A DNA stretch of 64,000 nucleotides from a bacterium (GCA_963674965.2 CAXXFL010000006.1:1152001-1216000); one strand, 5' to 3'. Positions 18,020 to 35,813 are shown, counted from the first letter of the stretch. The notes: a model not told the origin generated them from the letters alone. Translations and numbers: made by a program.

Positions 18020-18027
<8 letters not shown>

Positions 18028-18751
18028 CGAACTTGCCGGATAAAAGAGCGTTCCTGGCGGCTTCCTGCTCGGCCTCCTTTTTGCTCTTTCCCTTGCCCAG
18101 GCCGCAGGTTATGCCCTCGACTTTCACCTCGACCTCGAAGGTCTTCATGTGGTCCGGGCCCTGCTCCTCGATGACGCGATAAACGGGAGTGCTTTTATAA
18201 AGGGCCTGGACCCTCTCCTGGAAGGGCGTCTTATAATCGCCCAACAGATCGATGGGAGGAAGGGAATCGAGCAGGGGCTGGAAAAGACGCTCGATGACCT
18301 TGAAGGTCTCGTCGAACCCTCCGTCCAGGTAGATGGCGCCCATAAGCGACTCGAAGGCGTCCTCCAAGATCGAGGTCTTGTCCGCGCCGCCGGTCAGCTT
18401 CTCGCCCTTGCCCAGTCTTAAAGCGTTGCCCAGTCCGAGGTCCCTGGCCAGGTCCGCCAACCTGTCGCAGTTGACGAGCCCAGCCCGAATCCTCGAAAGC
18501 TCTCCCTCCGCCGCGCCGCTGAAACGGAGCATGAGCATATGGGAAACCACCAGCCCGAGGACCGCGTCTCCCAGGAACTCGAGCCGCTCGTAATGGATTT
18601 TTATCATCTCCCTCCCGTCGTCGAGCAGCGACTGGGTGACCTCGTGGGCGAATGACGAGTGCGTCATGGCCCTCTCGAACAGCGCCCCGTTTTTAAAGCG
18701 ATACCCGATCTTGTCCTGGATGACCTCCAGGGACTCGGTATTGTTTCCCAT
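18020..18751 (-). CDS. rnc: Ribonuclease III, C-terminal part of the 698-aa ORF with its own internal RBS and ATG
   Basis: AMTHSS, signature ERLEFLGDAVL, DAFESLMGAIYLDGG, dsRBD (GPDHMKTF..GKSKKEAEQEAA); GGAGA 7 nt before ATG 18751. Confidence 0.92.
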
Positions 18752-20116
18752 CCAATTGTCTCCATTCTCCGTGATATTGTATCCAACGCCCGACCGTATC
18801 TGTATCCGGCCGTTCGGCTCGATCTTGTCGCCCCAAAGGGCCGCGCCGTCATGGGAATATATTTCTACTCGATAAATATTGCCTACCATGTCCGCGCCGC
18901 CATTGCATCCGACCCTTAAGTAATTATCGCTCGTCCCGAATATTTTACCGTCCATCTCCGTTTCCCCGAGCGTCTCCAACTCGAAACCAACCTGTTCCTC
19001 CAGGAAAGCGGCCCTCTTCTTTTTGCCCAGCTTCCTGAGCTCGGCGGCGCGGGCCTTGATGGTCTCCGGGTCCAGATGGCCGGGCATGGCGTCGGCCGCC
19101 GTGCCGGTACGCCTGGAATAAGGAAATACGTGAAGATAGGTCACGGGAAGCTCGGTAATAAAATCAAGGCAGTTGGAATGCTCCCTTTCCGTCTCGCCGG
19201 GAAAGCCGGCTATCACGTCCATGCCAAGGCCGGCCCGGGGCATGGCCTCCTTAAGACGCCAGACGGCCCGCCTCACCGCGTCCACCTTATAGGGCCTGCC
19301 CATGCGGGTGAGGACCTCGTCGTCTCCGCTTTGCAGGGGAACGTGGAAATGAGAGCAGAACAATCCTGAATCGGCCGCGGCCTCGATCAGGTCATCGGTC
19401 AACTCCTGCGGCTCGATGGAGGACAGCCTGATCCTGGCGGGCATATCCCGGCTCCCGGCCAGCAGCTTGAGAAGGTCCGAGAGCTTTTTGCCCCATTCCT
19501 TGCCGTAAAGCCCAATATGCACGCCCGTGAGCACGGCCTCGCGAAACCCGGCCCGGGCCACGCCCCGGAGTTGGCGGACCACCTCGGCCATGGGCACGCT
19601 TCGGCTCGGTCCCCTCGCCACGGTGACGATGCAATAGGCGCAGTTGAAATCGCAGCCGTCCTGGATTTTCACCAGGGCCCTGCCCTTTCCCTTTTGCAGC
19701 CCGCCCTCGGGATGATAGAAAACGGGGGACCGGGGAAGGACTTTCCCCGTCAGTAGCTCGATCACCCTCTCCCGCTGGGAGGGCCCGACCGCCGCGTCGG
19801 CCCCCGCCTCGAGGAGCGCCGGGGCGGAAACCTCGGCCAGGCAGCCGGCGGCGATGATCTTCGCGGCGGGGCCGACCCTCCTGGCCCGCCTGATCATCTG
19901 CAGGCACTGCATCTCCCCCCGCCTGGTCACGGCGCAGGTGTTGACCACGTAGGCGGCCGCCTCGACTTCCTCGTCAACCGCTCCTCCCATGTCCACCGCC
20001 AGGAAAGAATCGGCCGGGACCATGGCCATCATGGCCGCGGTGTCGTAGCGGTTGGCCTTGCATCCCAGCGTGATAAAGGCCGCTATCGGGAGTCGCCTCG
20101 AGCCTTCGCTTCCCAT
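18020..20116 (-). CDS. mtaB: tRNA threonylcarbamoyladenosine methylthiotransferase MtaB, in frame with RNase III
   Basis: TLGCKANRYDT, VNTCAVT, AAGCLA, KIQDGCDFNCAYC (CxxxCxxC), RIRLSSIEP, HVFPYSRRTGT; no stop before the RNase III sequence. Confidence 0.88.
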
Positions 20117-20124
20117 GCTCTCGA

Positions 20125-21252
20125 TTACCCTCTTTCCCCTGGGACGGGTCGCCCGATGGACCCGCCTCCCAGCGCCTCGTCGCCGCGATAGATCACCGCC
20201 GTCTGGCCCGGAGTGATCGCCCGCTGGGGCTCGTCGAATATTATTTCCACTTCGTCCTCGCCGATAAGGCTGACCCTGGCGGCCGCGAGGGGCGCCCGGT
20301 AACGGATTTTCACCGCCACCTTTTCTTCTTCTCCGGGTGGGGAAGAAAGCCAGTTCATCTCCTGGACAACCGCCCTCTTATGGAACAGGTCTTCCCATTT
20401 TCCCACCACCACCCGACGCGCCTCGGGGTCGATGTCCACCACGTAGGAAGGATCGGGACCGGGAAGGGAGAGCCCTTTCCGCTGCCCTATGGTAAAGCCA
20501 TGCACGCCCATATGCGACCCGACCGACTTCCCCTCCAGGTCCACTATGTCTCCGGGAGGGGGGACCGAGCGGCCGAGCGCCTTCTCCACTATCTCCATGT
20601 ACCCGTCCTTGATAAAGCAGACGTCCTGGCTCTCCTCCTTGTCCGAGACGAATAACCCGGCCTCCCGGCAGGCGTCCCTTACCCGGTCTTTCTCGAACCA
20701 GCCCGCGGGCAAAGCCGCCCGGGCCAGTTGCTCGGGCCTTAGCCGGCTGAGGAAATAGGACTGGTCCTTTTTGCCGTCCAGCCCCCGGAGAAGGCGGGGT
20801 CTTCCCGCCGAGTCCCTTGTAACTCTCGCGTAATGCCCGGTGGCGACAAGGTCGGCCCCAATCCTTTGCGCCGTCTCTATCAGGGTCTTCCACTTTACCA
20901 TGGGGTTGCACGTGACGCAGGGGTTGGGCGTAAGACCCTGGGCGTATTTTTGGGCAAAGGGAGTGACAACTTCTCGATACAGCCTCTCCTCGATGGGCAC
21001 GGCCGTGAACTCGATCCCCAGGCATTTGGCCACCCGCTCTGCGTCCACGCGGTCCCGGTCCGGGGATTTTCCTTTGCCCGGCTTAAGTTCTCCCAGGTCG
21101 AAATGCACCGCCGCCAGGGGTACTCCGGTCCGTTTTATGGCCAGGGCCGCGAAGGCGCTGTCCACACCCCCGCTCAGGGCGACCAGGGCTTTGCGCGGCT
21201 TTTTGCCCTCGAGCCAGGGAGGGGACGGACCTATTTCATCGAGAATTCCCAT
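20125..21252 (-). CDS. mnmA: tRNA 2-thiouridylase MnmA
   Basis: ALSGGVDSA, TPNPCVTCN, ATGHYA, KDQSYFL, ESQDVCF, FTIGQRKGL, AITPGQ; start moved to ATG 21252. Confidence 0.93.
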   Translation of the reverse strand: MGILDEIGPSPPWLEGKKPRKALVALSGGVDSAFAALAIKRTGVPLAAVHFDLGELKPGKGKSPDRDRVDAERVAKCLGIEFTAVPIEERLYREVVTPFAQKYAQGLTPNPCVTCNPMVKWKTLIETAQRIGADLVATGHYARVTRDSAGRPRLLRGLDGKKDQSYFLSRLRPEQLARAALPAGWFEKDRVRDACREAGLFVSDKEESQDVCFIKDGYMEIVEKALGRSVPPPGDIVDLEGKSVGSHMGVHGFTIGQRKGLSLPGPDPSYVVDIDPEARRVVVGKWEDLFHKRAVVQEMNWLSSPPGEEEKVAVKIRYRAPLAAARVSLIGEDEVEIIFDEPQRAITPGQTAVIYRGDEALGGGSIGRPVPGERG

Positions 21253-21524
21253 GACCTCACGGGTGTTATTATGTCCCATCTTTACCGGGATTAGAAGCCC
21301 GGCCGGGGTTGCACGGATGCATATCCGCTCGCCGGGTCGGGCGTCACCGTAGAGTCCGGGTCGGATACCATGGCCTGACATTTTCGACAAAATGTAATTT
21401 TTTTCTATACATGAGAGTAAATTTGTGATAAATTGATAAGACCGAAATTCTGTCACCTCGGTATATCATGCCGGGGTTGCCTTGGAAGCTGCGTTGGAAT
21501 ATGCGCGTAAAGGAGTGCAAGCGG

Positions 21525-22532
21525 GTGGAAAACACGGGTGAAAAGACGGACGAGGTAAAAAAACACGTTCCCCGGAACAGGCTGCTCAAGGCCCCCATCC
21601 GGGTGAGGACCGAAGAAGGCGACCATGACGAGGAGTTCACCGAGTACATGATGGAGGTGGACAAGGACCGCATTTACATCCAGACGGATAATCCCTATAA
21701 AGAGGGCACGGTCCTGCATCTGGGTCTCGACCTTCCCGGGATCAACCGTACCATACACTTCAAGGGCGAGGTGGTAAGGATCAACCCCCACAAGCCCAAA
21801 ACGCCCGAGGACTTAGAGCCCGGCATGGGCATAGTCTTCGAGCGGGTCAGTTTCGACAACCGCAAGCTTATCGCCGACTACCTCGAGAAAATCCAGTCTG
21901 AGGACCGCTCGGAGGATTACTCGGTATTCCTTTCCTGGGTCTCGAAGATCAGCCGTCCCATGTCGCCCAAGGAAAAGGAGAAGATCAAAAAGGACCTCCT
22001 CAAGGTCCTCTATGGCGCCAACAAGGAACCCATCCCGGAGAAGCAAAAGAAAAAGACCCCCGAGGAACTGGAGATCATCGCCAGAATTCCCCTCTTCGAG
22101 GAACTTGACGAGATCGAGATCGAGGAGATGGCCCGCATAATGGCCAAGGAAAAATACCGCGCCGGCGACGGGATTTTCGACGAGGGCGACGTGGGCGACA
22201 AGATGTACCTCATCCTGAAGGGAGCGGTGGACATCATCAAGGACACGGGCAAGGGGCCGGGACAGATACTGGTCACCCTCAAGGCCGGAGACTACTTCGG
22301 CGAGATGTCCCTTATCGACGACGCGCCAAGGTCGGCCTCGGCCATGGCCGGGGAGGAAACCATCCTCCTCAGCATCAACAAGAAGCACCTCAACCTGCTC
22401 CTGGACAACTCGCCCACCATCGCCGCCAAAATCTACAAGTTCTTCGTCGCCGTTCTGAACGACAGGCTCAGGGAAACCAACGATAAAATCAGAAGCTTCG
22501 TCAGCATGGCCCAGGAGATGAGCCAGGCTTAA
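21525..22532 (+). CDS. PilZ-like domain plus cyclic-nucleotide-binding domain protein
   Basis: PilZ-like beta region (FKGEVVRIN..PGMGIVFE) and cNMP cassette GDYFGEMSLIDDAPRSASA; GTG 21525 after AGGAG (track start 21468). Confidence 0.8.
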   Translation: MENTGEKTDEVKKHVPRNRLLKAPIRVRTEEGDHDEEFTEYMMEVDKDRIYIQTDNPYKEGTVLHLGLDLPGINRTIHFKGEVVRINPHKPKTPEDLEPGMGIVFERVSFDNRKLIADYLEKIQSEDRSEDYSVFLSWVSKISRPMSPKEKEKIKKDLLKVLYGANKEPIPEKQKKKTPEELEIIARIPLFEELDEIEIEEMARIMAKEKYRAGDGIFDEGDVGDKMYLILKGAVDIIKDTGKGPGQILVTLKAGDYFGEMSLIDDAPRSASAMAGEETILLSINKKHLNLLLDNSPTIAAKIYKFFVAVLNDRLRETNDKIRSFVSMAQEMSQA

Positions 22533-22543
22533 TCCGCCAACGC

Positions 22544-22584
22544 CCCCGGCGCCCGCGGACCAGCACCCGGCGCCGGGGATTTTT
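22544..22584 (+). terminator. Intrinsic terminator after the PilZ-cNMP gene
   Basis: CCCCGGCGCC (22544-22553) pairs with GGCGCCGGGG (22569-22578), followed by ATTTTT. Confidence 0.65.
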
Positions 22585-22653
22585 ATGCCCTGTCATTTTC
22601 CAGGAAGCTTAAAGAGGCTGGAGATATTCTGAGAAAGTATTAATTATGGAAAA

Positions 22654-22684
22654 TTGACATCCCAGGGGGGGGGGGGGGTAGTAT
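22654..22684 (+). promoter_or_regulatory. Putative sigma70 promoter with a G14 homopolymer in the spacer (phase-variation candidate)
   Basis: TTGACA 22654-22659, TCCCA plus G14 (22665-22678), TAGTAT 22679-22684; spacer is 19 nt. Confidence 0.65.
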
Positions 22685-22750
22685 TGTAATTTACAGCATG
22701 GTAACATATGGATGAATTGTCTACAAATCTCGGAGAAGGGGGATTAAGTC

Positions 22751-24064
22751 ATGAGGGCTAAGATTGGAATGGCGTTGGTTGGAGTTTTGGTTATGGCCGT
22801 GGTGGTGGGGATTGCCTGGGCGCAGTCCGCTCCGCAGCTTATCAATTACCAGGGGCGGCTCACGAACGCGGCGGGGCAGCCGCTTGCGGACGGTACTACC
22901 GTTGATCTGACATTCGCTTTCTATGGAGTTGAAACGGGCGGGACCGCGTACCTCACGGTTTTCCAGGAGGACGTGGTGGTCAATGGCGGTATTTACAACG
23001 TGCTCATCGGCTCCGGTACGGTCACGCCCGGTTCCGAGCCCAACCTGGGCGCTGTCTTCCAGAACCACCAGGACGTGTGGATGGGGGTCGAGGTTGAAAG
23101 CGATGGCGAGATGTCGCCCCGGTCCAGGATCGCCAGCGTGCCTTATGCCTTGAAGGTAGAAGGAGGCTGGCTTACGGCCTTTTACAATAAGAGCGATTAC
23201 GACGGGGACGGTTACTCAAAGGTCGTTGACGGGGCCACGGCCACCACGGATTGCAACGATGTCGACGCCTCCATAAACCCCGGCGCGGCCGAAGTCTGTG
23301 ACGACGGTTTCGATAATGACTGCGACGGCAAGATCGACGGTGATGACCCTGACTGCCAGGGAGGAAGCACTGTCGGCCCAATGGCCCTTATCCCCTCCGG
23401 CTGTTTCAACATGGGCGACGCGTTCAGCGAGGGAAGCAGCGATGAACTTCCGGTGCATAACGTTTGCATCACCTCGGACTTCTACATGGACGTTCATGAG
23501 GTGACCAACTCGGAGTACGCGGCTTGCGTGAGCGGAGGGGGATGCACGGCGCCCGGCTATTCTTCAAGTTATTCTCGCGGCTCTTATTACGGTAATCCGA
23601 CCTATGACAATTTTCCTGTTATCTGGGTTGACTGGAATCAGGCCACGGCCTATTGCGCCTGGGCGGGCAAGAGACTGCCCACCGAGGCCGAGTGGGAGTA
23701 CGCTGCCCGTGGCGGCCTGTCCGGCAAACGCTATCCCTGGGGAGATACAGCTACAGCATGTGTTGACGCAAATTACGATTGGTGTATTGGAGATACCAGC
23801 GAGGTTGAAAGCTATCCTGCTAATGGTTACGGTCTTTATGATGTGGGGGGTAATGTTTATGAATGGGTCAACGACTGGTATCAGAGCGATTACTACAGTA
23901 CAAGTCCCACCAACGATCCTCCCGGTCCCGCGTCAGGTACGTCTCGCGTTTTGCGCGGCGGCTATTGGTTCGGCGCTACGCACGACCTGCGCGTGGCGAA
24001 CCGGGCCGGCACTACGCCTACTCTCCGGAGCTACGACATTGGCTTCCGTTGTGCTGGGGACTGA
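22751..24064 (+). CDS. Secreted protein with FGE-sulfatase/C-type-lectin-fold C-terminal domain; probable DGR target
   Basis: Signal peptide; QLINYQGRL..SVPYA N-terminal module; Cys/Asp-rich motif DCNDVDASINPGAAEVCDDGFDNDCDG; FGE motifs RLPTEAEWEYAARGG, NGYGLYDVGGNVYEWVND, RVLRGG..IGFRC. Confidence 0.88.
   Translation: MRAKIGMALVGVLVMAVVVGIAWAQSAPQLINYQGRLTNAAGQPLADGTTVDLTFAFYGVETGGTAYLTVFQEDVVVNGGIYNVLIGSGTVTPGSEPNLGAVFQNHQDVWMGVEVESDGEMSPRSRIASVPYALKVEGGWLTAFYNKSDYDGDGYSKVVDGATATTDCNDVDASINPGAAEVCDDGFDNDCDGKIDGDDPDCQGGSTVGPMALIPSGCFNMGDAFSEGSSDELPVHNVCITSDFYMDVHEVTNSEYAACVSGGGCTAPGYSSSYSRGSYYGNPTYDNFPVIWVDWNQATAYCAWAGKRLPTEAEWEYAARGGLSGKRYPWGDTATACVDANYDWCIGDTSEVESYPANGYGLYDVGGNVYEWVNDWYQSDYYSTSPTNDPPGPASGTSRVLRGGYWFGATHDLRVANRAGTTPTLRSYDIGFRCAGD
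23945..24056 (+). other. Candidate DGR variable region (VR) with 3' IMH end
   Basis: Within the RVLRGG..W....LRVA.R....P..R...IGFRC scaffold, non-scaffold codons are mostly NNC/NNT (tat, ttc, ggc, gct, cac, gac, gcc, ggc, act, ctc, agc, tac, gac), as expected from mutagenised AAY template codons. Confidence 0.7.
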
Positions 24065-24094
24065 TTACTCTTTTGTCCTTTTTAACTCTTACAC

Positions 24095-24122
24095 TTTAAT
24101 GGGGGCGTAAGCCCCCATTAAA
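24095..24122 (+). other. DGR-type target-recognition hairpin/cruciform
   Basis: Perfect 12-bp stem TTTAATGGGGGC / GCCCCCATTAAA with GTAA loop, 30 nt after the target stop, preceded by degenerate TACTCTT-like repeats. Confidence 0.75.
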
Positions 24123-24134
24123 AAATTTTTAAAA

Positions 24135-24320
24135 ATGAAGAAAGAACTTCCCGCTGTTCAAAAGGCGTATGATCTGTGCAAAGAGGTTTTGCCAAGGGTT
24201 TCAAAGCTTCCAAGAGACGTGAAGTTCACACTGGGAGACCGGATAGCCGACAATTGCCTTGCCGTGCTTGAGATATTGCTTCAGGCCGCCGGCGTTACGT
24301 TTTTCAAGAGGCCTCATTGA
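24135..24320 (+). pseudogene. avd: Truncated DGR accessory protein Avd (four-helix-bundle family)
   Basis: ELPAVQKAYDL..LPRVSKLPRDVKFTLGDRI..LEILLQA resembles the Avd N-half; similarity ends at about aa 52, where a MITE-end-like sequence begins. Confidence 0.72.
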
Positions 24321-24386
24321 TTATCCTCTCACCCCGGCTTACAATAATTTCATGTCAAAGAGGCCAATTAATTGGGGAGAATCTTC

Positions 24387-24635
24387 ATGAAAGACGAGGC
24401 TTTACTGGAGCACATCGTTTTAGACGCCACCGTGATGGCCGGAAAGCCGGTTATTCGCGGGACTCGGCTTACCGTTGATTTCATCCTGAACCTTTTGGCT
24501 CATGGCGCCACCGAGGAAGATATCCTGGCCGAATACAAAAGTCTTTCTAAAGAGGACCTCCGCGCCTGCATTCTGTTCGCGGCCGAGGCCATCAGGAACA
24601 CGGACTTTATGCCGCTGGCCGCTAAAACCGTCTGA
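24387..24635 (+). CDS. DUF433 antitoxin
   Basis: VMAGKPVIRGTRLTVDFILNLLAHGATEEDILAEYKSLSKEDLRAC. Confidence 0.85.
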   Translation: MKDEALLEHIVLDATVMAGKPVIRGTRLTVDFILNLLAHGATEEDILAEYKSLSKEDLRACILFAAEAIRNTDFMPLAAKTV

Positions 24636-24745
24636 TGAAATTCATGGTGGAAGAATGTACGGATCCAGCCGTAGCCTCCTGGCTACGATAGCAAAATCAC
24701 GAGGTATTTTCGGTTTTCGACCAGGCCAAGGGCGCGAATTGGTGA
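24635..24745 (+). pseudogene. DUF5615-type PIN toxin pseudogene
   Basis: TGATG coupling to DUF433; reads MKFMVEECTDPAVASWLR*QNHEVFSVFDQAKG with in-frame TAG at 24689-24691, then similarity is lost. Confidence 0.7.
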
Positions 24746-24917
24746 TTGAAAAGGGCGCTCGACCAGCTTCCCGCCGTTCAAGGGAAGTATCTATATAAAT
24801 CCTTGCGGTGTAAAAAGCGGACAAAGATTACGGTATCTCCTTCCAAAGTGAATCCCAACCTGTAATCTCCTATCCTGATCCTGTAATGCCCGCCGCTGGA
24901 CGTCAGCTTTTTCATTA

Positions 24918-25100
24918 GCCTCTTGAAAAAGTCCCGCTTTGGAGTGCGGCGGCTCGACGCCGCTTTTCTTCCGAGCGGCTTGACGCGAGGCTGGCCGTTT
25001 TATTGTAAGGCCTTGTCAAGCCAAGGCCATCGAAAGCGGTCTCAAGCGACCGCGCTCCAAAGCGGCTATGCCGCCAAGAAAAGGACTTTCGCAAAAAATT
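24918..25100. repeat. MITE-like element containing an inverted pair of REP-like palindromes
   Basis: Outer GCCTCTTGAAAAAGTCC / GGACTTTCGCAAAAA; inner CCGCTTTGGAGTGCGG (24934-24949) pairs with CCGCGCTCCAAAGCGG (25050-25065); each arm has its own hairpin. Confidence 0.65.
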
Positions 25101-25194
25101 CTCATATTACCGATTTGCGCGCTGTTTTCCGCTTGCTTGACAATATCGATGGTTTTACGCGCGCGCCCTTTGTAATCAACCTTCAAGCGGCGCC

Positions 25195-25392
25195 TCAGAG
25201 AGCTTTCAAGACTTCATCTTCCGAGACTGAATCGGTGTTTATTCCCTCTTCAATGGCATTGGCCATTGCAAAATCCTCGATTACTTCGGCCATCACCTCG
25301 TAAAACAAGTCCCGGCGTTCAGACGGGGCTTCCAGGACCGCCTCCTTTAGAAGCTCCTTGATTCTTTCCTCGCCAAACAATTGTTCAGCCAT
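25195..25392 (-). CDS. Small acidic antitoxin-like protein with no toxin downstream
   Basis: 65 aa, KELLKEAVLE..EVIEDFAMANAIEEG..VSEDEV; AAGGAGG RBS. Confidence 0.55.
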   Translation of the reverse strand: MAEQLFGEERIKELLKEAVLEAPSERRDLFYEVMAEVIEDFAMANAIEEGINTDSVSEDEVLKAL

Positions 25393-25449
25393 CTTTGTCC
25401 TCCTTCGTAAGCATTTTATCCAAGAATAACCATTTTGTAACTGTATTGG

Positions 25450-25477
25450 TTGACAATAGGCTAAAAATAACTATAAT
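25450..25477 (+). promoter_or_regulatory. Consensus sigma70 promoter of the Fic gene
   Basis: TTGACA 25450-25455, 16 nt spacer, TATAAT 25472-25477; GGAGGAG RBS before ATG 25511. Confidence 0.7.
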
Positions 25478-25510
25478 AACAAAAGTGTAATCGTTTTAGC
25501 GGAGGAGACG

Positions 25511-27043
25511 ATGGCTCAGGAAGACCCAAAAGAAGCTTTGCCAAGACCCGCAGGATACTCTGCGCTCGTTCAGCGGTACGATCTTGATGTGATCCAGAAC
25601 TGGCATGAGTCTTATATCGCGGCCAGTGGAATCCACCGGATCGATTCCACTGGCGATGTTACCGTTGAGACTTATCCTTCTCAATACTGGCCCGGGGATC
25701 GATTGGGCGACCATCTTGAATTCGCGCTCAAGTACGACGGCATCAACCTCGCAATCCTCGCCAGCCTTTTCCAGAAGGCCGACGAAAAAGAAGTCCTGGA
25801 ATACATTGAATCCAAACCGACAGGTAAATACGCGCGGCGGGTCTGGTTCCTCTACGAGTTCATGACGGGCGGGATTCTGCCGATTCCAGACTTGAAGCGA
25901 GGGAACTATATCGACTTGTTCGAGTCCGAATCGTACTACACGGTGAGCCAGGCTCGCAGAGTAAAGCGCCAACGGATCAACGACAATATGTTGGGAGACG
26001 GCAAATTCAGCCCCATCGTGCGCCGAACCGAAACCCTTCTGGCTTTTGAAAAGGCCCATCTGACCGAGCGATGCCGGGAAGTTGTGGCAAGCTATTCCCC
26101 GGAACTGTTGAAAAGGGCGCTGGGATACCTTTACTCCAAAGAGACGAAATCATCCTTCGAGATCGAACACATCAAACCAAGCTCAACGCGCATAGAGCGT
26201 TTCGCGGCGTTGCTCCGATTGGCGGAGCAAGAGGATTTCTGCCGGAAGGAGCGACTGATCGATCTTCAGAACAATATCGTAGATCCCAGGTTTCGGGATT
26301 CCGACTACAGAGCGAATCAAAACTACGTCGGTGAGACCGTGGCCTGGCAGAACGAAAAGATTCATTATGTGTCTCCGAAGCCTGCCGACTTGCCGGGCCT
26401 GATGGAAGGTCTGCTGGAAGCCCATACGCGGATGGAGACAGGCCAAACCCAAGCGGTGATCCACGCCGCCGTCATCGCCTACGGGTTCGTCTTCATGCAT
26501 CCCTTCGAGGACGGGAACGGCAGAATCCACCGTTTTCTGATCCATAACGTTCTCGCCCGAAGAGGGTTTACGCCCCCCGGAGTTATGTTTCCCGTCTCGG
26601 CTTCGATGCTGAAAAACCCGAGTGAGTATGACGCATCCCTCGAAGCGTATTCACGAAAACTGATGCCCTTGATTGAATACTCTCTCAACGAAGAGGGCAG
26701 CATGACGGTCCACGACGATACGGCCATTTGGTACCGCTACCTGGACATGACGGCTCAAGCAGAAGCGCTTTTTCATTTCATTGATCTGACCATCAATACC
26801 GAGCTCACGAGTGAACTGGCCTTCTTGGCCAATTACGACCAAGCCAAGAAAGCCCTGCAAGAGATCGTGGACTTGCCGGACAGACGGGTCGATCTTTTTA
26901 TCCGGTTCTGCCTGCAAAACAACGGGCGAATTTCCTCAAGAAAGCGCGCGAACCACTTTGACTTCTTGTCGGATGACGAAATCGCTCGGATGGAGCAAGC
27001 CGTCCATTCCGCTTATGGGGACATAAATTCCACGCCTAAATAA
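25511..27043 (+). CDS. Fic/DOC family protein (510 aa)
   Basis: Canonical Fic motif HPFEDGNGRIHR; ETKSSFEIE. Confidence 0.9.
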   Translation: MAQEDPKEALPRPAGYSALVQRYDLDVIQNWHESYIAASGIHRIDSTGDVTVETYPSQYWPGDRLGDHLEFALKYDGINLAILASLFQKADEKEVLEYIESKPTGKYARRVWFLYEFMTGGILPIPDLKRGNYIDLFESESYYTVSQARRVKRQRINDNMLGDGKFSPIVRRTETLLAFEKAHLTERCREVVASYSPELLKRALGYLYSKETKSSFEIEHIKPSSTRIERFAALLRLAEQEDFCRKERLIDLQNNIVDPRFRDSDYRANQNYVGETVAWQNEKIHYVSPKPADLPGLMEGLLEAHTRMETGQTQAVIHAAVIAYGFVFMHPFEDGNGRIHRFLIHNVLARRGFTPPGVMFPVSASMLKNPSEYDASLEAYSRKLMPLIEYSLNEEGSMTVHDDTAIWYRYLDMTAQAEALFHFIDLTINTELTSELAFLANYDQAKKALQEIVDLPDRRVDLFIRFCLQNNGRISSRKRANHFDFLSDDEIARMEQAVHSAYGDINSTPK

Positions 27044-27129
27044 ACACCGGCTCGGTCATCAGCGGCGCCAGGTGGACCGTCTCCTGGCCCCTCCCGTTCA
27101 CATTGCCCCGCTACCTCGTCGAACCCGCC

Positions 27130-27290
27130 GCTGGTGACCTTGCCGGCGGGAGCGCCTGATGGCTGGGGCCATGCGGCGCGTCCTCGGCGAGACCGGCCGG
27201 TCCTTTCACCTCGAACCTCCTCCGCCATTGGAGGACGGTGGGACGGGACGTTCCCAACTCCTTGGCGATGGCGTTGTTGGATATGCGGGA
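27130..27290 (-). pseudogene. IS630-family transposase N-terminal HTH remnant
   Basis: Minus strand translates RISNNAIAKELGTSRPTVLQWRRRFEVKGPAGLAEDAP; no start codon or DDE domain. Confidence 0.65.
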
Positions 27291-27337
27291 GGCCGACGTT
27301 TATCAATCCTCATCAGGGAAAACTAAATGACGCGATT

Positions 27338-27405
27338 CCCACCCAGGACGGCGGCCGCTTCGCGGCGCTTGCCCTGGGCTGTGATATCTTGCCCCCGCAG
27401 GGCGC
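27338..27405. repeat. REP-like palindrome
   Basis: CCCAGG (27342) and CCTGGG (to 27378) enclose the hairpin GCCGCTTCGCGGC, followed by a second small hairpin GCCCCCGCAGGGC. Confidence 0.5.
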
Positions 27406-27647
27406 GAAAAATCACTTGTAATAGGGGAACTTTGCGGGATATACTGACAACATGAAGCCAACACTGAGCCGGAAAATTTATTTGATTTTGCCGCCATTTT
27501 TTTTTATTATCATTTTATGTCTGGACCAGTACATTTCATTTATTTGGAACGCAAAAGCTTCAGACGCAAAATTCATCAATCTCGAGATTCAGCGATTTCA
27601 GGAGTGCCATCTCCAAAAATATGAAATATACTCCGAGGGTTTAGTTA

Positions 27648-29411
27648 GTTCCAGTTGCGTAACTAGAAAAAGCCAATAAAAACAATGTGCTGTAAGCATT
27701 TTTCGCTTCCCTTTTTGGTCTTGTTATGATACAATAACTCCTTGAAAAATCAAGGATTGACTTGCCGGGATGCTGTGAAGGGGGCGAAAAATGCGACCGA
27801 AAATTAAAATGCAAATGACCATTGAAGACCACGAATTTTTGAAAGCGGGCCATCTTTTCAAACAAGACACTGAGCTTGAGAAGATGAGCATAGCGCTCGA
27901 CGAGGCCAAGGAAATTCTGGAAGCTGTTGCCGATGATCTCCAAAGCGGACTCAAGGAGACCGGCGCCGAGGGGATGAGCGTCGAGCAGGTCCTTAGGAGC
28001 GCGGTCATCTATCAACTCAAGTGTTATTCCTACCGGGAACTCGGCGACCGCCTCGGTTCCGATTACAATTTCCGCAAGTTCACCAGGTTCTTCGGGCGGG
28101 ACATTCCCCATTTCAGCAGCCTGGAGCGGGCGATAAAACGCATCCGCCCCGAGACCTGGGAGCGGATCAACGAAATGCTCGTGGCCCTGGCCATTAAAAA
28201 AAAAGTAGAAGACGGCGAGGCGGTCCGCGCTGACACCGCGGTGGCCGAGGCCAACATCCACTATCCGACCGACGCTTCGCTTCTTTTTGACAGCATCCGT
28301 GTATTGGACCGGTTGATGAAAGGAGCGCGGAAGGAGCTGCCGGGTCTCGGGTTCGAATATCATGACCGGACTCGGCGGGCCAAGAAGCGCGCTTACCAGA
28401 TCGCCATGGGCAAAGGCAAAGGGATCGAGAAGAAACGGGCGGTCTGGTACCGGGACCTTCTCAAGGTTTCGGCGGAAATCTTGGCCATGGCCCGCTCGGC
28501 GCGGGAGGCGCTGGACGAGGCCCTTAAAGGCGGAGAGCTTTATTTCAGCGATGCGGGCCTGGCAACCATGATCAAGAGCGAACTCGATCATTACCTGCCG
28601 CTTTCTGAGCAGTGCGTCGAGCAGTGCGAGCGGCGGGTTATAAAAGGCGAGAAGGTTCCCGCGCAAGAGAAGGTGGTTTCCGTTTTCGAGCCGCACGTTG
28701 ATATCATCCGGAGAGGCAAGACCATGAGCCCGACCGAGTTCGGTCACAAGGTGATGGCGGCGACGGGAAGGTCGGGGATTGTGCTTCAATATAAAGTGTG
28801 CGAGGGCAACCCTTCCGACGCCGACCTTTTCGAGGACATTTTGCAAAAACACGTCCGCCTGTTCGGCAAGGCTCCACGCGAGTTTACCGGCGACCGCCGC
28901 TTCTATCATGAGGACAATGAGAAGCTTGCGACCGAAGGTCCTTATTATATCGAGCGCCTGGCCATTCCCAAGCCCGGCAAAAGGAGTTCGGAGCGGATCG
29001 AGCACGAGCGTCAGCGCTGGTTCAAGAAGCTTCTTCGCTTCCGGGCCGGGATCGAGGGCGGCCTTTCCGCCCTTCTTCGCGGCTTCGGTCTGAGCCGATG
29101 CCTGTGGAGAGGTTTCGAGAGCTTCAAGTCCTGGGTGGGTCTTTCGTTCTTTGCCTGGAACCTTCGAAAACTCGCGCTGCTGACTTAGCCGCCGCCGGGC
29201 GCGCCCCTGTGGGGGCAATGAAAAACGGAAATGAAAAACAGCAAAAGGAGAGGTGTTTTTTGAAAGGATAGAAAAGGGCCGGCTCAGGCATTCAACTCGC
29301 CTGAAAGCGTTAAAATCTTTTCCGTCCTTTATGGACGCCCTGAAAATCTGCATGTCCATATCCTCTCCGCACCGCATAATGAAAGCCATTAAGCAGTTGT
29401 GCAACAGAAAC
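27648..29411 (+). mobile_element. Complete insertion sequence (ISNCY/IS5-like)
   Basis: Imperfect 17-bp terminal IRs GTTCCAGTTGCGTAACT / AGTTGTGCAACAGAAAC (13/17 match); 6-bp duplication TAGTTA at 27642-27647 and 29412-29417. Confidence 0.85.
27791..29188 (+). CDS. DDE transposase (ISNCY/IS5-like)
   Basis: RADTAVAEANIHYPTD, VSVFEPHVDIIRRGK..TEFGHKV, GDRRF, RAGIEGGLS..RGFGLSRC. Confidence 0.9.
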   Translation: MRPKIKMQMTIEDHEFLKAGHLFKQDTELEKMSIALDEAKEILEAVADDLQSGLKETGAEGMSVEQVLRSAVIYQLKCYSYRELGDRLGSDYNFRKFTRFFGRDIPHFSSLERAIKRIRPETWERINEMLVALAIKKKVEDGEAVRADTAVAEANIHYPTDASLLFDSIRVLDRLMKGARKELPGLGFEYHDRTRRAKKRAYQIAMGKGKGIEKKRAVWYRDLLKVSAEILAMARSAREALDEALKGGELYFSDAGLATMIKSELDHYLPLSEQCVEQCERRVIKGEKVPAQEKVVSVFEPHVDIIRRGKTMSPTEFGHKVMAATGRSGIVLQYKVCEGNPSDADLFEDILQKHVRLFGKAPREFTGDRRFYHEDNEKLATEGPYYIERLAIPKPGKRSSERIEHERQRWFKKLLRFRAGIEGGLSALLRGFGLSRCLWRGFESFKSWVGLSFFAWNLRKLALLT

Positions 29412-29417
29412 TAGTTA

Positions 29418-30494
29418 ACGGGAAACATCGATATTTTATGCATTAACTGCGAAGGAGATCTTGTAGTCGTAGAGCTAAAGAAGAAAAAGACTCCAAGGGA
29501 GGTTGTAGCCCAGGCCCTTGATTATTGCGCCTGCATCAAGGATTGGCCGAACGAAAAAGTGTTGGACGTTGCATCGAATCTTTATCAAAATGAGGACGGA
29601 TTCATCAAGGCTTTCCGCTCTAAGTTCGAGACAGAAGGCATTCCAGAAGTTCTTAACAACCAACAGAAAATCTATATAATGGGAGCTGAGATCGACGCCA
29701 CAACTGAAAGGATCATCGAGTATCTATCAGATGTTTATGGCGTTGGAATAAACGCGGCAACATTCCAGATGTTCAAGGGAAAAGCTGGTGCTTTCATGAC
29801 AAGAATTTATACAAAGACGCCTGAAGAGGTTGATTATAGCGCCAAGACGAAACACAAAAGTAAAAAGACACCACCTCCAACTATAGAGATGTTCCAAGAG
29901 GCGGCAAAGAAGGCCGGCTTTGAGGAAGTCTATAATCACCTATTTGAATGGGCTAGTTATGAATTTGATACCATTCACAGAAGAAAAGCTAGTGTTGCTT
30001 TTAATCTCGAAAAAGCAGTTGTTTTTAACCTTTCGCCCTTTCCGGAATGGAGCGATCCAGAATACGGTCTTAATGCCGGTATTTACGTTGATAGGCTAGC
30101 AAAATATTGTGATGTTAAAAGCGAGGTAATAATGAAATATATTCCAAAAGAAATCGAGAAAGTGGAGTTGAATGAATATGAAGCCAATTTTTATGGGGCC
30201 TATTATCAGGTTTGGTTTAAGACAATGGATGAAGCGGAGAAGTTTACCAAAGGTATCACAAATCTTTTCAGAAAAGTGGAAGGGGGAGGCAATATTGTGA
30301 AATATAATCCAAATTGCGCAATAAATCAACGCTGCTTAACACTGTTAATTTGTCTACATTGCAACACTGCTGTCCAAAATAGGACGGACCTTTCCTTTGC
30401 CCCATTAAAAAACGGGGATTTAGATGGTCAAACTATGGGTTTTCAGGTTGAGGTTATCCCTTTTTTTTCCGCCGGGGCTGTCCAAGACCGCTGA
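29418..30494 (+). pseudogene. NucS-like PD-(D/E)xK endonuclease-domain gene lacking its N-terminus; the 3' end runs into the IS4 remnant
   Basis: Frame just after the IS reads GNIDILCINCEGDLVVVELKKKKTPREVVAQALDY, in frame with track ORF 29559-30494; low GC. Confidence 0.65.
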
Positions 30495-30772
30495 TGGGAA
30501 GATATAGTTGCTCGGGTTTGGGCACGATCGGCTCCACGCCGAAGGGATTGTGCAGCCATTCCGTCAAATCCCGATAAGTAAAGAGGTTCAGCCGCGGCAT
30601 GGAGGCCAGGTTCGAGAACGACCAGCCGGCCATGGATATGTAATGGAGCCACTTTAAAATAAGGATGGCGATCAAGGCTGTCCAAATCTGGATGAGCGGC
30701 GCGTTCTCGCTCGTGCCCACGAAGGACTTGATTTTGAGGTTTTGTTTCAGGGCCTTGAAGAATATCTCGATC
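30365..30772 (-). mobile_element. IS4-family transposase 3' remnant with its right end
   Basis: Minus strand IEIFFKALKQNLKIKSFVGTSENA..IQIWTALIA; terminal TTTTGGACAGCAGTG ending at 30365. Confidence 0.8.
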
Positions 30773-31221
30773 TTGGCGCCGGGGCCGTGAACGCCCGGCT
30801 CGACTCGGAGCCAGGCGGCGAGGACCAGGCGAAATTATCGAACGCCTCTATACTTCACCTGGCGGTTGGCCGCCGCGACAAGGACATAGCCCGGACCCTG
30901 ATCGAGCATGGGGCCGACCCTAACGCCGGAGATTGCCGCGCCGAGTTCATGGGTAATTCCCACGAGGATATAACGCCCCTTCAACTGGCCTTGCTTGCCG
31001 AGCGCGAAATATCCATCGACATGCTCGAGACCCTTCTAGAGGGGGGAGACGGCCTCGAGAAGACGGACTCCCTGGGCCGAACCGCTCTGATGTACGCCGC
31101 GTACGGAGGATCAAAGGACGCGATCGAGTTTCTCCTTGAAAGAGGCGCCGATCCCGACGCAAGGATAACGCGGGCAAATCCCCTCTCGACCTCGCTAGAG
31201 AACTCGGCAACCCCGGCCTGA
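30773..31221 (+). pseudogene. Ankyrin-repeat gene fragment
   Basis: ILHLAV..LIEHGADPNA, TPLQLA, GRTALMYAAYGG..LLERGADPD; 5' end abuts the IS4 remnant. Confidence 0.7.
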
Positions 31222-31326
31222 TTAGCGCTGGAGGAATCATGCGGGGAGAATGAATAAATTGATTTTAGAGCCGCGACGGCCGATCGGTTTTTTTACCTTC
31301 TCATTTTCGCGATAGCGCGATTGACG

Positions 31327-33591
31327 TCATTGCCTTTGCTCGGCCGTGACAGGCATGAATATGACCCTGTATTCCTCTATTTTACAATCCTTCGAATTCA
31401 CGGGAACGATCATGATTCCCTTGATGGACTCAATGGCTATCCAATCCGGATAATTGGCGACTGGAAGAATGATCTTCTTTTCTCCTTTTGCCGTGGAAAT
31501 GGGAAATTGCAGTTTATTGCGTTCATCATAATCGTCGGCGCTATTTTCCTTCCAATATATATATCCTTCAAGGTCTTTTGGATTACGGCATTCTATCTCC
31601 ATGTCTATTTCAATGGAATTGACGATGGAGGGAGTTATATCCATATTTGAAAGAGTGAAAAAAGGATCGTCCGCGGTGGTGACGCATCCGCTGATTGGAG
31701 ACGTTTCGCAATGATGTATTATTAAGCCGTTGCTGAAATTTACCTCGATCGCGGACAAGTCGGTCCCGCTTACAAGCTTTATAACCTGGTTCCTGTTTTC
31801 TACGGTTTTTCTTATACTCTCGGTAACGTCCTCGAATTCTCCCGAGATTTTGTTCCATTTTAGAAAAATGGAAAAATAATCAAGAAAGCACGGGTCTTTT
31901 GGAAGAGTGAAAGGAGACAAATCGAATTTCAGGCGTTTGGTGGACACTCTTTTAAAATCATAGAATTTTTCCACGTCTTTGAATGGTTCGATGGCTAAAT
32001 AGTCTCCAATGGAAACCGCGTTTCCTGGAAAAAGGGCTTGGATTAATTTGCGGGCCCCTGCCGGGTCTTCCCTCATGATCGTGTTCCAATCGGCAAGCGC
32101 GTTTTTCATGCTCGCGATTCTAAGATTAAAAAATCCCCTTGAAGCAAGGACGGTAAATCTTCTTGACTCAAGGCCTTCCCATCTGGTCAACAAATCTATC
32201 GCGTGTTTAATATTTAACTTTCGGTCTGAAAGCAGGGCGTATCTGAACGCGAAGACTATGTCCCATTGGGCCAGGTAATCATCTTTTATTCCTAACGCCT
32301 CATTCACTTCTTCATATGACGCCGGTAACGACGACGTCTTGTTTTGGGGAATAAGGTCGTTGGCGTCCAAGTATCTGATTAGCATTTCAGCTAACTCTTG
32401 TTGTCCATATAACGTTTGATGTACGTGGTCGGTAAAAAATTTATGCCCCAGGTATTCTTTTCCCTCCAGTTTTGATTTAATTAACGTCTCGGAATCCAAT
32501 AAATACGCGCCATCTCCCTTGACCGCTTTCCTCAGGGCCTCGTTGATGGAAGAAGGAGCTCTAACCGGAAGATCGTCAAGGTCGCGAGCAACCTGAAAGC
32601 TTGACCACGCCCGGCCCCATTCTCCTCTTTGCCTTTGCATGATCCCCTTTAAAAAATGAGCAAGAGCGAAATCGGGAGATTTTTCCAGGGCATTAATTAT
32701 TAACGGCTCCGCTTCTTGTATTTTCCCGCTAAATATCAGCCCGTCCGCCTTTTCCAGGTCCCTTAAGATTCTTTCTTTTTCATTGGGTCCGAGGCTGGAG
32801 TCGAAAACCGATTTAATCGGATAGTAGTCAGCCTCGTTTCCTATTACGGTCATGAAAACAACGGGAACGCCATGTTCATTGCAAATTGATATAATGTCCT
32901 TTATGTTTTTGGAAAAAGCTCGAAGTACTTTTTTTCTTTGTTTTGGTGGAAAAAATTCACGGCCATCGTCGGGGTAGTCGAAAAACAAGCCGGGGTCTCG
33001 CGTCACCTTTTGCACATATCTAAGGGCCAGCAGGGAATCGATAATGGAAACGGACCGGGTGTGCCCGGCCAGCCATTTCCAGGCTTCCCCCACTGGCGTG
33101 GGGCCGCTAATCCCCATGGACCGAAACCATCCCATTTCGTTGTGCCCCATATACACGACGCATAGATCGGGCTCATACCGCAAGGATTGCTTAATTACTT
33201 TTTCCACTACGTCACTATTCATGGCCTCCACGGCCAGGTTATAAGCTCTGATATCCTTGTCTCCCCGCCCCTGCAAGTTGAGGATCGTTTCCAGTCTTTT
33301 AGGCAGGGAAGATTTGTCGGCGTAATTGCTTCCGAACATGCTTGAAGCGCCGTAGCAGAAAATCCTGAATTCTCCGGAAGGCTTTGGCACGGAAAAAGAC
33401 GGCTTCAGGTAGGATGGCTCGAATGTAACCTGACGTGGATGCCCCTGGGGGCCGGCGCTGAACAAAGCGTCACTGGTTTTTTCGATGCCGGCAATATATA
33501 AAAGCAGCTCAAGAAGAAGGAAAAGAACAATCAGTGGAATAAAGCTGAAGGTGAGGCGTTTTATCTTCGTTAACTTGTTTTTCATTTTCAT
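31327..33591 (-). CDS. Membrane-anchored SGNH/GDSL-like protein with TPR region
   Basis: N-terminal TM, RIFCYGASSMFG, YEPDLCVVYMGHNE, FTDHVH; TPR-like helices; lower GC than flanks. Confidence 0.7.
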   Translation of the reverse strand: MKMKNKLTKIKRLTFSFIPLIVLFLLLELLLYIAGIEKTSDALFSAGPQGHPRQVTFEPSYLKPSFSVPKPSGEFRIFCYGASSMFGSNYADKSSLPKRLETILNLQGRGDKDIRAYNLAVEAMNSDVVEKVIKQSLRYEPDLCVVYMGHNEMGWFRSMGISGPTPVGEAWKWLAGHTRSVSIIDSLLALRYVQKVTRDPGLFFDYPDDGREFFPPKQRKKVLRAFSKNIKDIISICNEHGVPVVFMTVIGNEADYYPIKSVFDSSLGPNEKERILRDLEKADGLIFSGKIQEAEPLIINALEKSPDFALAHFLKGIMQRQRGEWGRAWSSFQVARDLDDLPVRAPSSINEALRKAVKGDGAYLLDSETLIKSKLEGKEYLGHKFFTDHVHQTLYGQQELAEMLIRYLDANDLIPQNKTSSLPASYEEVNEALGIKDDYLAQWDIVFAFRYALLSDRKLNIKHAIDLLTRWEGLESRRFTVLASRGFFNLRIASMKNALADWNTIMREDPAGARKLIQALFPGNAVSIGDYLAIEPFKDVEKFYDFKRVSTKRLKFDLSPFTLPKDPCFLDYFSIFLKWNKISGEFEDVTESIRKTVENRNQVIKLVSGTDLSAIEVNFSNGLIIHHCETSPISGCVTTADDPFFTLSNMDITPSIVNSIEIDMEIECRNPKDLEGYIYWKENSADDYDERNKLQFPISTAKGEKKIILPVANYPDWIAIESIKGIMIVPVNSKDCKIEEYRVIFMPVTAEQRQ

Positions 33592-33773
33592 TCACGTCGC
33601 GCCTTTTTGCTCGAGGCAACCCGTAAGATTCCGTCATGGAATAATTGCCTTAATTATATAGGTTTTTTCGGTTCCTGCAAGATATTAATCCGCTATTTAT
33701 GAGAAGCAAAGTTTACTCCTGACGTACCATGTGTAAAAATATTCAAATGATCGCGAAGGGAGGGATAATTTAA

Positions 33774-35813
33774 ATGAGGCGAAGGTTTGAGTTCGGATAT
33801 AAGACTTTGTTTTTTTGTCTGTTTTGTGTTTTTTTGTCTGGACCAAGCGCCCCCGCCGCCGGGGACGGCGCGGCAAGGTCGGTCGAGAAAATAAGCGCCG
33901 GGTGGGAGTTCGCCGAGTACGAGGACGGCAAGGCGGGCAAGTGGGAGAAGGTGGACGTGCCTCATACGTGGAACGCCCACGACACCATTGACGGCGACTT
34001 CACCTATCGCATGGGACAGGGCCTTTACAAAAAAGACCTTGAAATTGACCTCGATTCGGACCAGCGCTATTTCCTGCGCTTCGAGGGAGTGAACGAGAAG
34101 GCCCGGGTCTGGGTCAACAGCTCGGAGGTCGGTTCCCACAAGGGAGGCTACACGGCCTTTGCCTTCGAGATAACCGACCTTGTAAAGGACGGCTCGAACC
34201 ATATCGAGGTCCTGGCGGACAACTCCTTTGACCGCGAGATCATGCCCCTTTATTGCGACTTCAACTTCTACGGCGGCGTCTATCGCGACGTGCACCTGAT
34301 ATCGACGGGCCGCGACTTAATCGCGGTCACGGACCACGCCTCGCCGGGAGTATACGTCTCGCAAAAGGAGGTGTCCCGCGAAAGGGCCGACCTCGAGTTC
34401 ATGGCCCGCGTTTCCTCCGACTCCGGTGACTTGAAGCTCCGCTTCAGCGTCATCGACGGGGAGGGACGGACCCTCGATACGGCCGAGACGGACCTCGAGC
34501 GCGCGGGCGAGTGGCTCGAGGGGGTGGCCTCGTTGTCCATCAAGTCGCCCCGGCTCTGGAACGGCGTCTCCGATCCCTATCTTTACCTGGCGCGGGCCGA
34601 GCTTGTGTCCGGCGGGCAGGTGGTTGACGCGGTGGACCAGCCCCTGGGCCTTCGGTTTTTCCACGTGGACCCTGACCAAGGCTTTTTCTTGAACGGAGAG
34701 AAGTACCGCGTCAAGGGGGTGAACCGCCACCAGGACCGGGAGGGCAAAGGGAACGCCATCAGCCGGGAGGACCATGAGGAGGACTTCGCGCTGATACGCG
34801 AGATGGGCGCCAACGCCGTCAGGCTGGCCCATTATCCTCAGGCCGACTACGCCTACTCGATATGCGACCGGGAGGGCATCCTGGTATGGGCCGAGCTTCC
34901 CTTTATCGGGATGACCGGCGACGTGACCGGCGTGTTCCTCGACTCTCCCGCCTTTCGCGAAAACCTGAAAACGCAGCTGACCGAGTTGATCCGGCAAAAC
35001 TACAACCATCCCTCCATTCTTTTCTGGGGCCTTTTCAACGAGTTGTCTCCGCCGGGAGACCCCTACCAGCTTATTGGCGAACTGAACGGCCTGGCCCACG
35101 AGGAGGACCCCTACCGCCTCACCACGGCGGCGACCTTCAGGAAGGCCGCCTTCAACGACGTGACCGACCTCATCTGCTGGAACAAGTACTTCGGATGGTA
35201 TTACAACCGGCCCGGCAAGTTCGCCTCCTGGATCGACGAGGAGCGCGAAGAGCATCCCGACCGCCTCTTGTGCATGAGCGAGTACGGCGCGGGCGGCAGC
35301 GTAAAGCAGCACTCGGAGATGGATTATCCCGTTTTCGCCTTCGGTCCGTGGCACCCGGAGAACTGGCAGGCCAGGGTCCACGAGAGGCACTGGGAGATGA
35401 TATCCGAGCGCGAGTATCTGTGGGGTTCCTTTTTATGGAACATGTTCGACTTCAGCGTGGTATCGAGGCGGGAAGGCGACCGGCCCAACATCAACGACAA
35501 GGGCATGGTGACCTTCGACCGCAAGGAGAAAAAGGACGTCTTTTATTTTTACAAGGCCAACTGGAGCGACGAGCCGGTGGTGCATATCACGGACAAGCGC
35601 TTCAAGTATCGCGCTCCCTTCATCGAGGTCAAGGTGTACTCGAACCTTACCGACCTGACGCTCGAGATAAACGGGAAACCCGTCGAGATGGACTCGCGGG
35701 GATACGGGGTTTACATTGCTAAAAACGTCTGGCTGGCGCCGGGAACGAACCGGGTCGTGGCCTCGGGAAAGAAGGTGGACGGGCGGATAATGATCGACGA
35801 GTGCGAATGGTAG
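33774..35813 (+). CDS. Secreted GH2 glycoside hydrolase (beta-galactosidase/glucuronidase-like)
   Basis: VPHTWNA, HKGGYTAF, DFNFYGGVYRDV, GVNRHQD, RLAHYPQ, WGLFNE, SEYGAGG, INDKGMVT. Confidence 0.9.
   Translation: MRRRFEFGYKTLFFCLFCVFLSGPSAPAAGDGAARSVEKISAGWEFAEYEDGKAGKWEKVDVPHTWNAHDTIDGDFTYRMGQGLYKKDLEIDLDSDQRYFLRFEGVNEKARVWVNSSEVGSHKGGYTAFAFEITDLVKDGSNHIEVLADNSFDREIMPLYCDFNFYGGVYRDVHLISTGRDLIAVTDHASPGVYVSQKEVSRERADLEFMARVSSDSGDLKLRFSVIDGEGRTLDTAETDLERAGEWLEGVASLSIKSPRLWNGVSDPYLYLARAELVSGGQVVDAVDQPLGLRFFHVDPDQGFFLNGEKYRVKGVNRHQDREGKGNAISREDHEEDFALIREMGANAVRLAHYPQADYAYSICDREGILVWAELPFIGMTGDVTGVFLDSPAFRENLKTQLTELIRQNYNHPSILFWGLFNELSPPGDPYQLIGELNGLAHEEDPYRLTTAATFRKAAFNDVTDLICWNKYFGWYYNRPGKFASWIDEEREEHPDRLLCMSEYGAGGSVKQHSEMDYPVFAFGPWHPENWQARVHERHWEMISEREYLWGSFLWNMFDFSVVSRREGDRPNINDKGMVTFDRKEKKDVFYFYKANWSDEPVVHITDKRFKYRAPFIEVKVYSNLTDLTLEINGKPVEMDSRGYGVYIAKNVWLAPGTNRVVASGKKVDGRIMIDECEW

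Follow-up and report, generated by a model that had tools for sequence, protein, structure and literature searches.

The gene described here lies on the plus strand of a 64,000-nt stretch of bacterial DNA (GCA_963674965.2 CAXXFL010000006.1:1152001-1216000), hereafter called the window, in which positions are counted from the first letter. The end of the gene is a DGR-type variable region (VR). Downstream of the stop codon come a spacer, a hairpin, and a truncated avd (accessory variability determinant), and no template repeat (TR) or reverse transcriptase (RT) is present in the 64 kb. The features are, in order of position:

22751-24064, plus strand: DGR target gene, 437 aa, reading frame intact, stop codon TGA at 24062-24064
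23942-24061, plus strand: VR, the last 40 codons (S398-D437), with limits set by analogy with the VR/TR pair of the related locus L074
24065-24094, plus strand: conserved T-rich spacer, which aligns with L078, L001, L004, L074, and L006
24095-24122, no strand assigned: perfect 12-bp inverted repeat, arms at 24095-24106 and 24111-24122, loop GTAA at 24107-24110
24123-24134, plus strand: A/T-rich tract before the avd start codon, conserved in relatives, its T run invariant in the alignment
24135-24290, plus strand: avd stub, codons 1-52 of about 115, identified by Pfam, homologues, and tblastn
24291-24320, plus strand: breakpoint and junction tail, in which the frame continues for nine unrelated codons to a stop
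24317-24635, plus strand: first unit of the apparent replacing DNA, a promoter-like site and then a DUF433 (antitoxin-like) gene at 24387-24635
24781-24915, minus strand: C-terminal fragment of a ParE toxin (Pfam E 2.6e-6, profile positions 55-89 of 89)

The target protein is probably a secreted or surface protein of the FGE-sulfatase/C-type-lectin fold. Its N terminus looks like a signal peptide, and we read the protein as secreted. The N-terminal domain belongs to no family that we recognised, and a MopE-type metal-binding motif (PF11617, E 4.4e-11) is also present. Residues 211-435 match the FGE-sulfatase domain PF03781 (E 2.6e-60), and the match ends at residue 435 of 437. In a sequence search of the PDB, the C-terminal domain matched the FGE structure 6muj (E 7.1e-48), and the protein also matched 2y3c, the variable protein of Treponema denticola (E 3.9e-26). 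The VR thus occupies the 3' end of an open reading frame that encodes a C-type-lectin/FGE-sulfatase fold, as in DGR targets. The longest homopolymer of the 64 kb, 14 consecutive G (22665-22678), lies about 70 nt upstream of the target ATG. The run sits between a perfect TTGACA (22654-22659) and -10-like hexamers (whole span 22654-22690). The spacing from TTGACA to TAGTAT is 19 nt, of which 14 are G, and would be 17 nt with two G fewer; a promoter scan called no site at 22654-22690. Slipped-strand changes in the run could switch the DGR target on and off, or the run may be a quirk of the assembly.

Variation within the protein family is concentrated at the C terminus. Of 8000 candidates scored in a protein search, 7899 were relatives. 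When the window protein is aligned with 13 of its closest relatives, the sequence is conserved as far as R-V-x-R-G-G and hypervariable columns follow, separated by the fixed blocks L-R-V-A, R, P-T, and G-F-R-C. The best protein relative, P0001, also has 437 residues and is 94% identical. The 26 residue differences between the two proteins are distributed very unevenly, with ten in residues 1-100, none in 101-397, and sixteen in 398-437 (Fisher p = 3e-12). A VR that differs at 16 of 40 residues beside an identical core indicates that diversification, or an exchange of the VR, was recent.

The same region stands apart at the DNA level. When eight DNA sequences, those of the window and of seven related loci, are compared in pairs, the last 40 codons differ by 0.415, 0.371, and 0.275 at codon positions 1, 2, and 3. 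The 60 codons upstream of the VR give the reverse, 0.31, 0.30, and 0.53, with L074 out of register in this block and inflating positions 1 and 2 there. The reversal inside the VR is the pattern expected from rewritten AAY template codons. The first-pass annotation of this DNA had set its reading against ordinary divergence of orthologues, without adenine bias, in this segment; in the eight sequences, positions 1 and 2 vary most. It had also stated that nearly all variable codons end in C or T, as from an AAC/AAT template. When hypervariable columns are defined from the seven related loci only, with the window excluded, 17 of the 18 window codons at these columns end in C or T, compared with 64.9% of the other 396 codons (binomial p = 0.0045), and the statement holds. 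The column of R426 (CGG in the window) contains only the codons CAG, CGG, and CGC in the eight DNA sequences, and only Q, R, L, or P in the 14 proteins, as expected if the template codon were CAG and its middle A mutable.

Variation at positions of the template-adenine type (NNY codons from AAY) is therefore found at the level of the family, and at that level the C terminus reads as a DGR variable region. If the L074 pair is a guide, identity between VR and TR would extend to 24061, the last base ahead of the stop codon. The VR had previously been placed from 23945; the region itself stands, and its start moves one codon upstream to the TCT at 23942-23944.

The spacer downstream of the stop codon remains alignable with L078, L001, L004, L074, and L006, although the coding parts of these loci are only 57-71% identical. 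The hairpin that follows it was described correctly at the outset, in coordinates and in sequence, as a 12-bp stem with a GTAA loop located 30 nt past the stop. Six of the stem pairs are G-C and six are A-T. As DNA it folds at -15 kcal/mol (z = -4.58), none of 200 shuffled sequences folds equally well, and it also scores as terminator-like. The inverted repeat is a candidate DGR target-recognition hairpin or cruciform. Relatives keep a G/C hairpin at this position with loops that differ by locus, such as a 9-bp stem with a TTT loop in L001 and a 6-bp stem with a 6-nt loop in L078; in L002 the hairpin is lost.

Twelve bases past the hairpin begins an open reading frame of 61 aa (24135-24320) that the first-pass annotation had missed. 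Its match to the bAvd family PF22296 is weak (E 2.1e-4; 22.2 bits, under the 40-bit cut-off) and covers residues 8-52, aligned to positions 4-48 of a profile with 107. Over its first 52 residues, the stub is 71-92% identical to eight full-length homologues (108-126 aa), each with the bAvd domain; in the alignment, homology to full-length Avd ends after residue 51-52. Six full-length Avd proteins used as tblastn queries matched the window only at 24135-24290, with two matches that begin slightly before the ATG; for the second half of Avd, neither the 64 kb nor 80 related loci gave a match. A tblastn search of phages with the full-length Avd P0122 returned two records at 29% identity, which are uninformative. 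The gene that adjoins the hairpin is therefore an avd truncated after codon 52, and the earlier view that the cis elements look intact cannot be kept for all of them. No full avd (bAvd family, about 110-125 aa), such as a complete DGR has, is found in the window. To judge from the sequence, the cassette is cut at about 24291, and a cut inside avd makes the locus the stump of its own cassette rather than a target built for remote service.

The DNA past the junction differs in character from the target gene. The promoter scan called a site there with the hexamers TTGATT and TACAAT separated by a 17-nt spacer, and the DUF433 gene that follows is a strong Pfam match (E 1e-21). The interval 24635-25195 contains gene debris, including a short stop-interrupted open reading frame that resembles the partner of DUF433 and that we take to be of the DUF5615 type. 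A 33-nt inverted repeat, 82% complementary, is formed by 24934-24966 and 25033-25065. The whole belongs to a low-GC stretch of about 23.8-33.8 kb, where GC content drops from about 0.56-0.61 to mostly 0.39-0.56 (one 400-nt interval reaches 0.64); the surroundings of about 24300-33800 have about 0.58-0.65. By Pfam, this stretch carries a RelB-like antitoxin, a Fic protein of 510 aa, and a DDE (IS) transposase of 465 aa; it also holds a 311-aa open reading frame without a family, an ankyrin-repeat protein, and a TPR protein of 754 aa. An Rfam search over 21000-35000 with E up to 0.1 gave no matches, and BLASTN of 23700-24330 against plasmids found none.

A second copy of the VR and an RT gene had both been reported missing from the window, and renewed searches agree. 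Compared without gaps to the rest of the 64 kb, a 141-nt VR segment reaches at best 59 of 141 identities (background mean 36.8, sd 5.3). BLASTN at word size 7 returned only the VR itself and the hairpin's match to its own complement, and neither a repeat search nor a scan for AAC/AAT-rich VR-like stretches found anything in the 64 kb. A TR that differs from the VR only at template adenines, as in a complete DGR, is thus not present in the window. Pfam found RVT_1 in none of 133 translated window reading frames, which comprise all 131 of at least 120 aa (one scanned as the nested part of a longer frame) and 3 shorter ones; the RT gene of a complete DGR is likewise not found. With RT, TR, and full avd all lacking in the window, the element does not belong among complete DGRs. 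Its fold, the position of its VR, and the pattern of its variation make the gene a DGR target.

Related loci carry the same module with different break points. A contig scan confirmed 158 relatives, of which 80 loci were kept, the best at 79% identity over part of the length and 71% over the full length. The closest loci share one layout: stop codon, T-rich spacer, G/C hairpin, A/T tract, avd start, and stub. At about 36 nt, the stubs of L001, L002, and L003/L004 are shorter than those of L078 (66 nt) and the window (156 nt). Further break points come from the protein database, where homology of the short Avd-like proteins P0129, P0130, and P0133-P0136 ends at other residues; some of the nine short Avd matches may be cut by contig ends. 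The L002 stub has an in-frame stop. L002 contains two copies of the avd-start module (10740-10775 and 11055-11090), about 315 nt apart and past a single target gene, with the in-frame stop in the first copy. The target of L078 (49-1345) is split over two frames (49-246 and 254-1345) and differs in its middle part; it is apparently a frameshifted or recombined copy.

What follows the stub is also similar among relatives. In several genomes, toxin-antitoxin cassettes with their own promoter-like sites adjoin the downstream end of the avd stub; in L074 it is the TR that they follow. At L078 1472-2007, Pfam identifies a HicB-like gene and HicA after the stub. At L074 1515-1996, HicA lies past the TR, where an RT would be expected, and the small open reading frame before it, without a Pfam match, is taken as HicB-like. 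Judged by their first residues, the reading frames after the stub in L001 (about 6830-7000) and in L003/L004 (about 1560-1700 in L004) are taken as HicB-like as well.

L074 provides the clearest view of how the family varies. In this locus (MAG contig CAYQTK010000009.1; 870-1290), VR and TR differ at 22 of 33 adenines and at none of 84 other bases, a clean pair that identifies the family as one of true DGR targets. The TR lies directly past the hairpin, with essentially no avd between them. No RT is found in the 10 kb downstream; upstream, the contig holds only 113 nt before the target gene, and an RT on that side is possible. L074 and the window share the VR architecture and the downstream module of spacer and hairpin; they differ in that L074 keeps a TR after the hairpin and has essentially no avd. 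We considered the L074 TR as a template for the window VR and ruled it out, because 18 of 84 non-adenine positions mismatch.

A Pfam scan of the seven closest loci (L001, L002, L004, L005, L006, L074, and L078), with flanks of up to 10 kb on each side, found RVT_1 in none of 108 reading frames of at least 220 aa. No RT near these loci, yet a clean A-only pair in L074, suggests that an RT may act at a distance in this clade. A more distant locus, L041, is a decaying DGR whose VR has a stop and whose RVT_1 fragment scores under the cut-off (E 5e-6). A regular-expression screen for DGR-RT motifs in the 80 loci gave no credible match; the screen was unvalidated and missed the L041 fragment, so the absence of RT rests on the Pfam scans.

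The VRs of single relative genomes do not appear to come from one template. The L074 TR is the only TR seen in the MAG that also contains L004, and the L004 VR mismatches 16 of its 84 non-adenine positions. L001 and L078 lie in one MAG, and their VRs differ at synonymous positions of invariant codons. Without a common template backbone, each orphan VR of a genome would need its own TR.

It is very probable that a DGR made the VR and that the cassette it belonged to was later truncated. Within this frame, we favour, at a probability of about 0.5, that the locus is the stump of a truncated cassette whose target gene is now frozen. The original cassette would have had the order target gene-avd-TR-RT. 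Adenine-specific mutagenic retrohoming would have written the last 40 codons of the target, and we propose that the ligand-binding tip of the protein came in this way to differ from that of every relative. A later rearrangement would have cut the cassette inside avd, at about 24291, and everything past the cut (the remaining avd codons, TR, and RT) would have been replaced by DNA of lower GC content that carries an IS transposase, a Fic gene, and fragments of toxin-antitoxin systems. What is left would be a surface-protein gene that is intact, probably expressed, and fixed in a single VR version, together with its hairpin and a dead avd stub. Diversification would have ended with the truncation, and no matching TR would exist elsewhere in the genome. 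The destruction of the locus's own machinery and its replacement by mobile and toxin-antitoxin debris favour a frozen target, as do the independent truncations of the same module in relatives, the signs of decay among them (the in-frame stop and missing hairpin of L002, the split target of L078), and the orphan VRs that share no template backbone within one genome. Against it, the target reading frame, the codon structure of the VR, and the 12-bp hairpin are all undecayed, and the VR has changed recently relative to P0001 while the core of residues 101-397 is identical.

The main competitor, a serious possibility to which we nevertheless give less than an even chance, is that the target is still alive. 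Its own avd-TR-RT would be lost, and a DGR elsewhere in the genome with a matching TR would rewrite the VR in trans, recognising the target in cis by the module of stop, spacer, and hairpin. In favour of a live target, the VR, the spacer, and the hairpin are all intact, and RT-less surroundings are the rule among the closest relatives (none of the 108 reading frames), one of which, L074, has its A-only pair with no RT in the 10 kb downstream. The strong divergence of the VR from that of P0001, beside a core identical over 297 residues, fits recent rewriting; the same contrast could also result from gene conversion that stopped at the VR. No Avd, full or stub, from the 1,249,510-nt contig that carries P0001 appears among the 8 longer and 9 near-length matches of the two Avd searches; because these depend on gene calling and a word-based search, the absence is weak evidence. 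Remote rewriting has precedents as well, in that both trans action of avd-TR-brt and remote targets are documented in the survey of Wu et al. (PMC5758913). Against a live target, neither a TR nor an RT is found in the 64 kb, the orphan VRs of single relative genomes need different templates, and the hairpin may be kept simply as the terminator of the gene.

Two further explanations would set aside a truncated DGR cassette altogether. DGR repeats often disturb metagenome assemblies, and the source, judged from its relatives, is apparently an uncultured organism; the join at about 24291 might then be chimeric, with a full cassette in the real genome. We consider this very improbable, because the break falls inside avd and not at the VR/TR repeat, independent assemblies show similar stubs with other break points, each followed by toxin-antitoxin genes, and a complete promoter and gene unit follows the junction. 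The other explanation holds that no DGR was involved and that the variable segment is the ordinary fast-evolving C terminus of a family of FGE-sulfatase paralogues, and the lack of a TR for the window locus agrees with it. This we find scarcely credible in view of variation that falls on the first two codon positions and leaves C or T at the third, the restriction of the R426 column to Q/R/L/P, the avd stub next to the target gene, and the true TR of L074 with its 0 of 84 non-adenine mismatches. The window VR itself mismatches the L074 TR at 22 of 33 adenines and at 18 of 84 other positions, an enrichment at adenines that also speaks for a DGR.

A different and rather unlikely idea concerns the conserved module as a whole. 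The stretch from the stop codon to about the eleventh avd codon, which takes in the spacer, the G/C hairpin, the A/T tract, and the avd start, could be a portable landing pad that is duplicated together with its targets. If so, many paralogues per genome could be rewritten in trans by distant sets of RT and TR, avd stubs would mark the duplicated unit and not decay, and the toxin-antitoxin cassettes would mark a recurrent site of insertion or stabilisation.

Whether frozen or still served, the window locus belongs to a familiar kind of system, as a DGR target that has been stranded. The survey of Wu et al. (PMC5758913) assigns 73 non-adjacent targets to 45 of 372 DGRs and counts 29 targets more than 100 kb away, belonging to 10 DGRs; membership required a TR match with only A-to-N differences. 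The window target resembles those remote targets in having no RT or TR nearby, and it shares the FGE-sulfatase/C-type-lectin fold and the C-terminal VR with examples such as the Treponema denticola DGR protein TvpA (2y3c). Unlike the TR-matched targets of that survey, the window locus has no known TR and carries half an avd. In the literature searched we found no description of avd stubs beside orphan targets, and subscription papers and full texts outside that search may hold one.

The DGR of Bordetella phage BPP-1 (mtd, avd, TR, brt) provides the reference for the hairpin. According to Guo et al. 2011 (PMC3240598), hairpins of the BPP-1 type have GC-rich stems of 7-10 bp and 4-nt GRNA loops, lie 4-34 bp from the VR, and depend critically on the loop sequence in BPP-1. 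The window resembles this arrangement in having an inverted repeat downstream of the VR, a 4-nt loop, and avd after the target; the distance of 30-33 nt from the VR and the loop size fit the description, and the stem core has 6 G-C pairs. Unlike the hairpins so described, the window stem has 12 bp, half of them A-T, and the GTAA loop lies off the GRNA consensus. A truncated avd, the absence of TR and RT, and a chromosomal setting free of neighbouring phage genes set the window locus further apart.

The avd stump and its recurrence at different break points in relatives are a modest new detail, and the rest is explained by the known system. Since DGR surveys find targets through their template, stranded targets are invisible to them, and a truncated avd stub offers a template-independent marker of a former DGR target. 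The recurrent stumps suggest that DGR cassettes in this clade of related uncultured bacteria are often duplicated and dismantled. Such dismantling would leave behind a family of lectin-fold proteins at the cell surface, every one of them locked into a binding tip of its own. Should some stumps still be diversified in trans, this clade would be well suited to defining the minimal cis signal of retrohoming.

Two observations elsewhere in the window deserve mention. On the minus strand, a reading frame of 698 aa (18020-20116) has a UPF0004 and radical-SAM (methylthiotransferase-like) N-terminal half and continues into a complete RNase III that includes a dsRNA-binding motif; it may be an unusual fusion, or else two genes joined by read-through. 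A second G homopolymer, of 10 G, lies at 4122-4131, upstream of a PAS/GAF histidine-kinase gene that starts at 4424.
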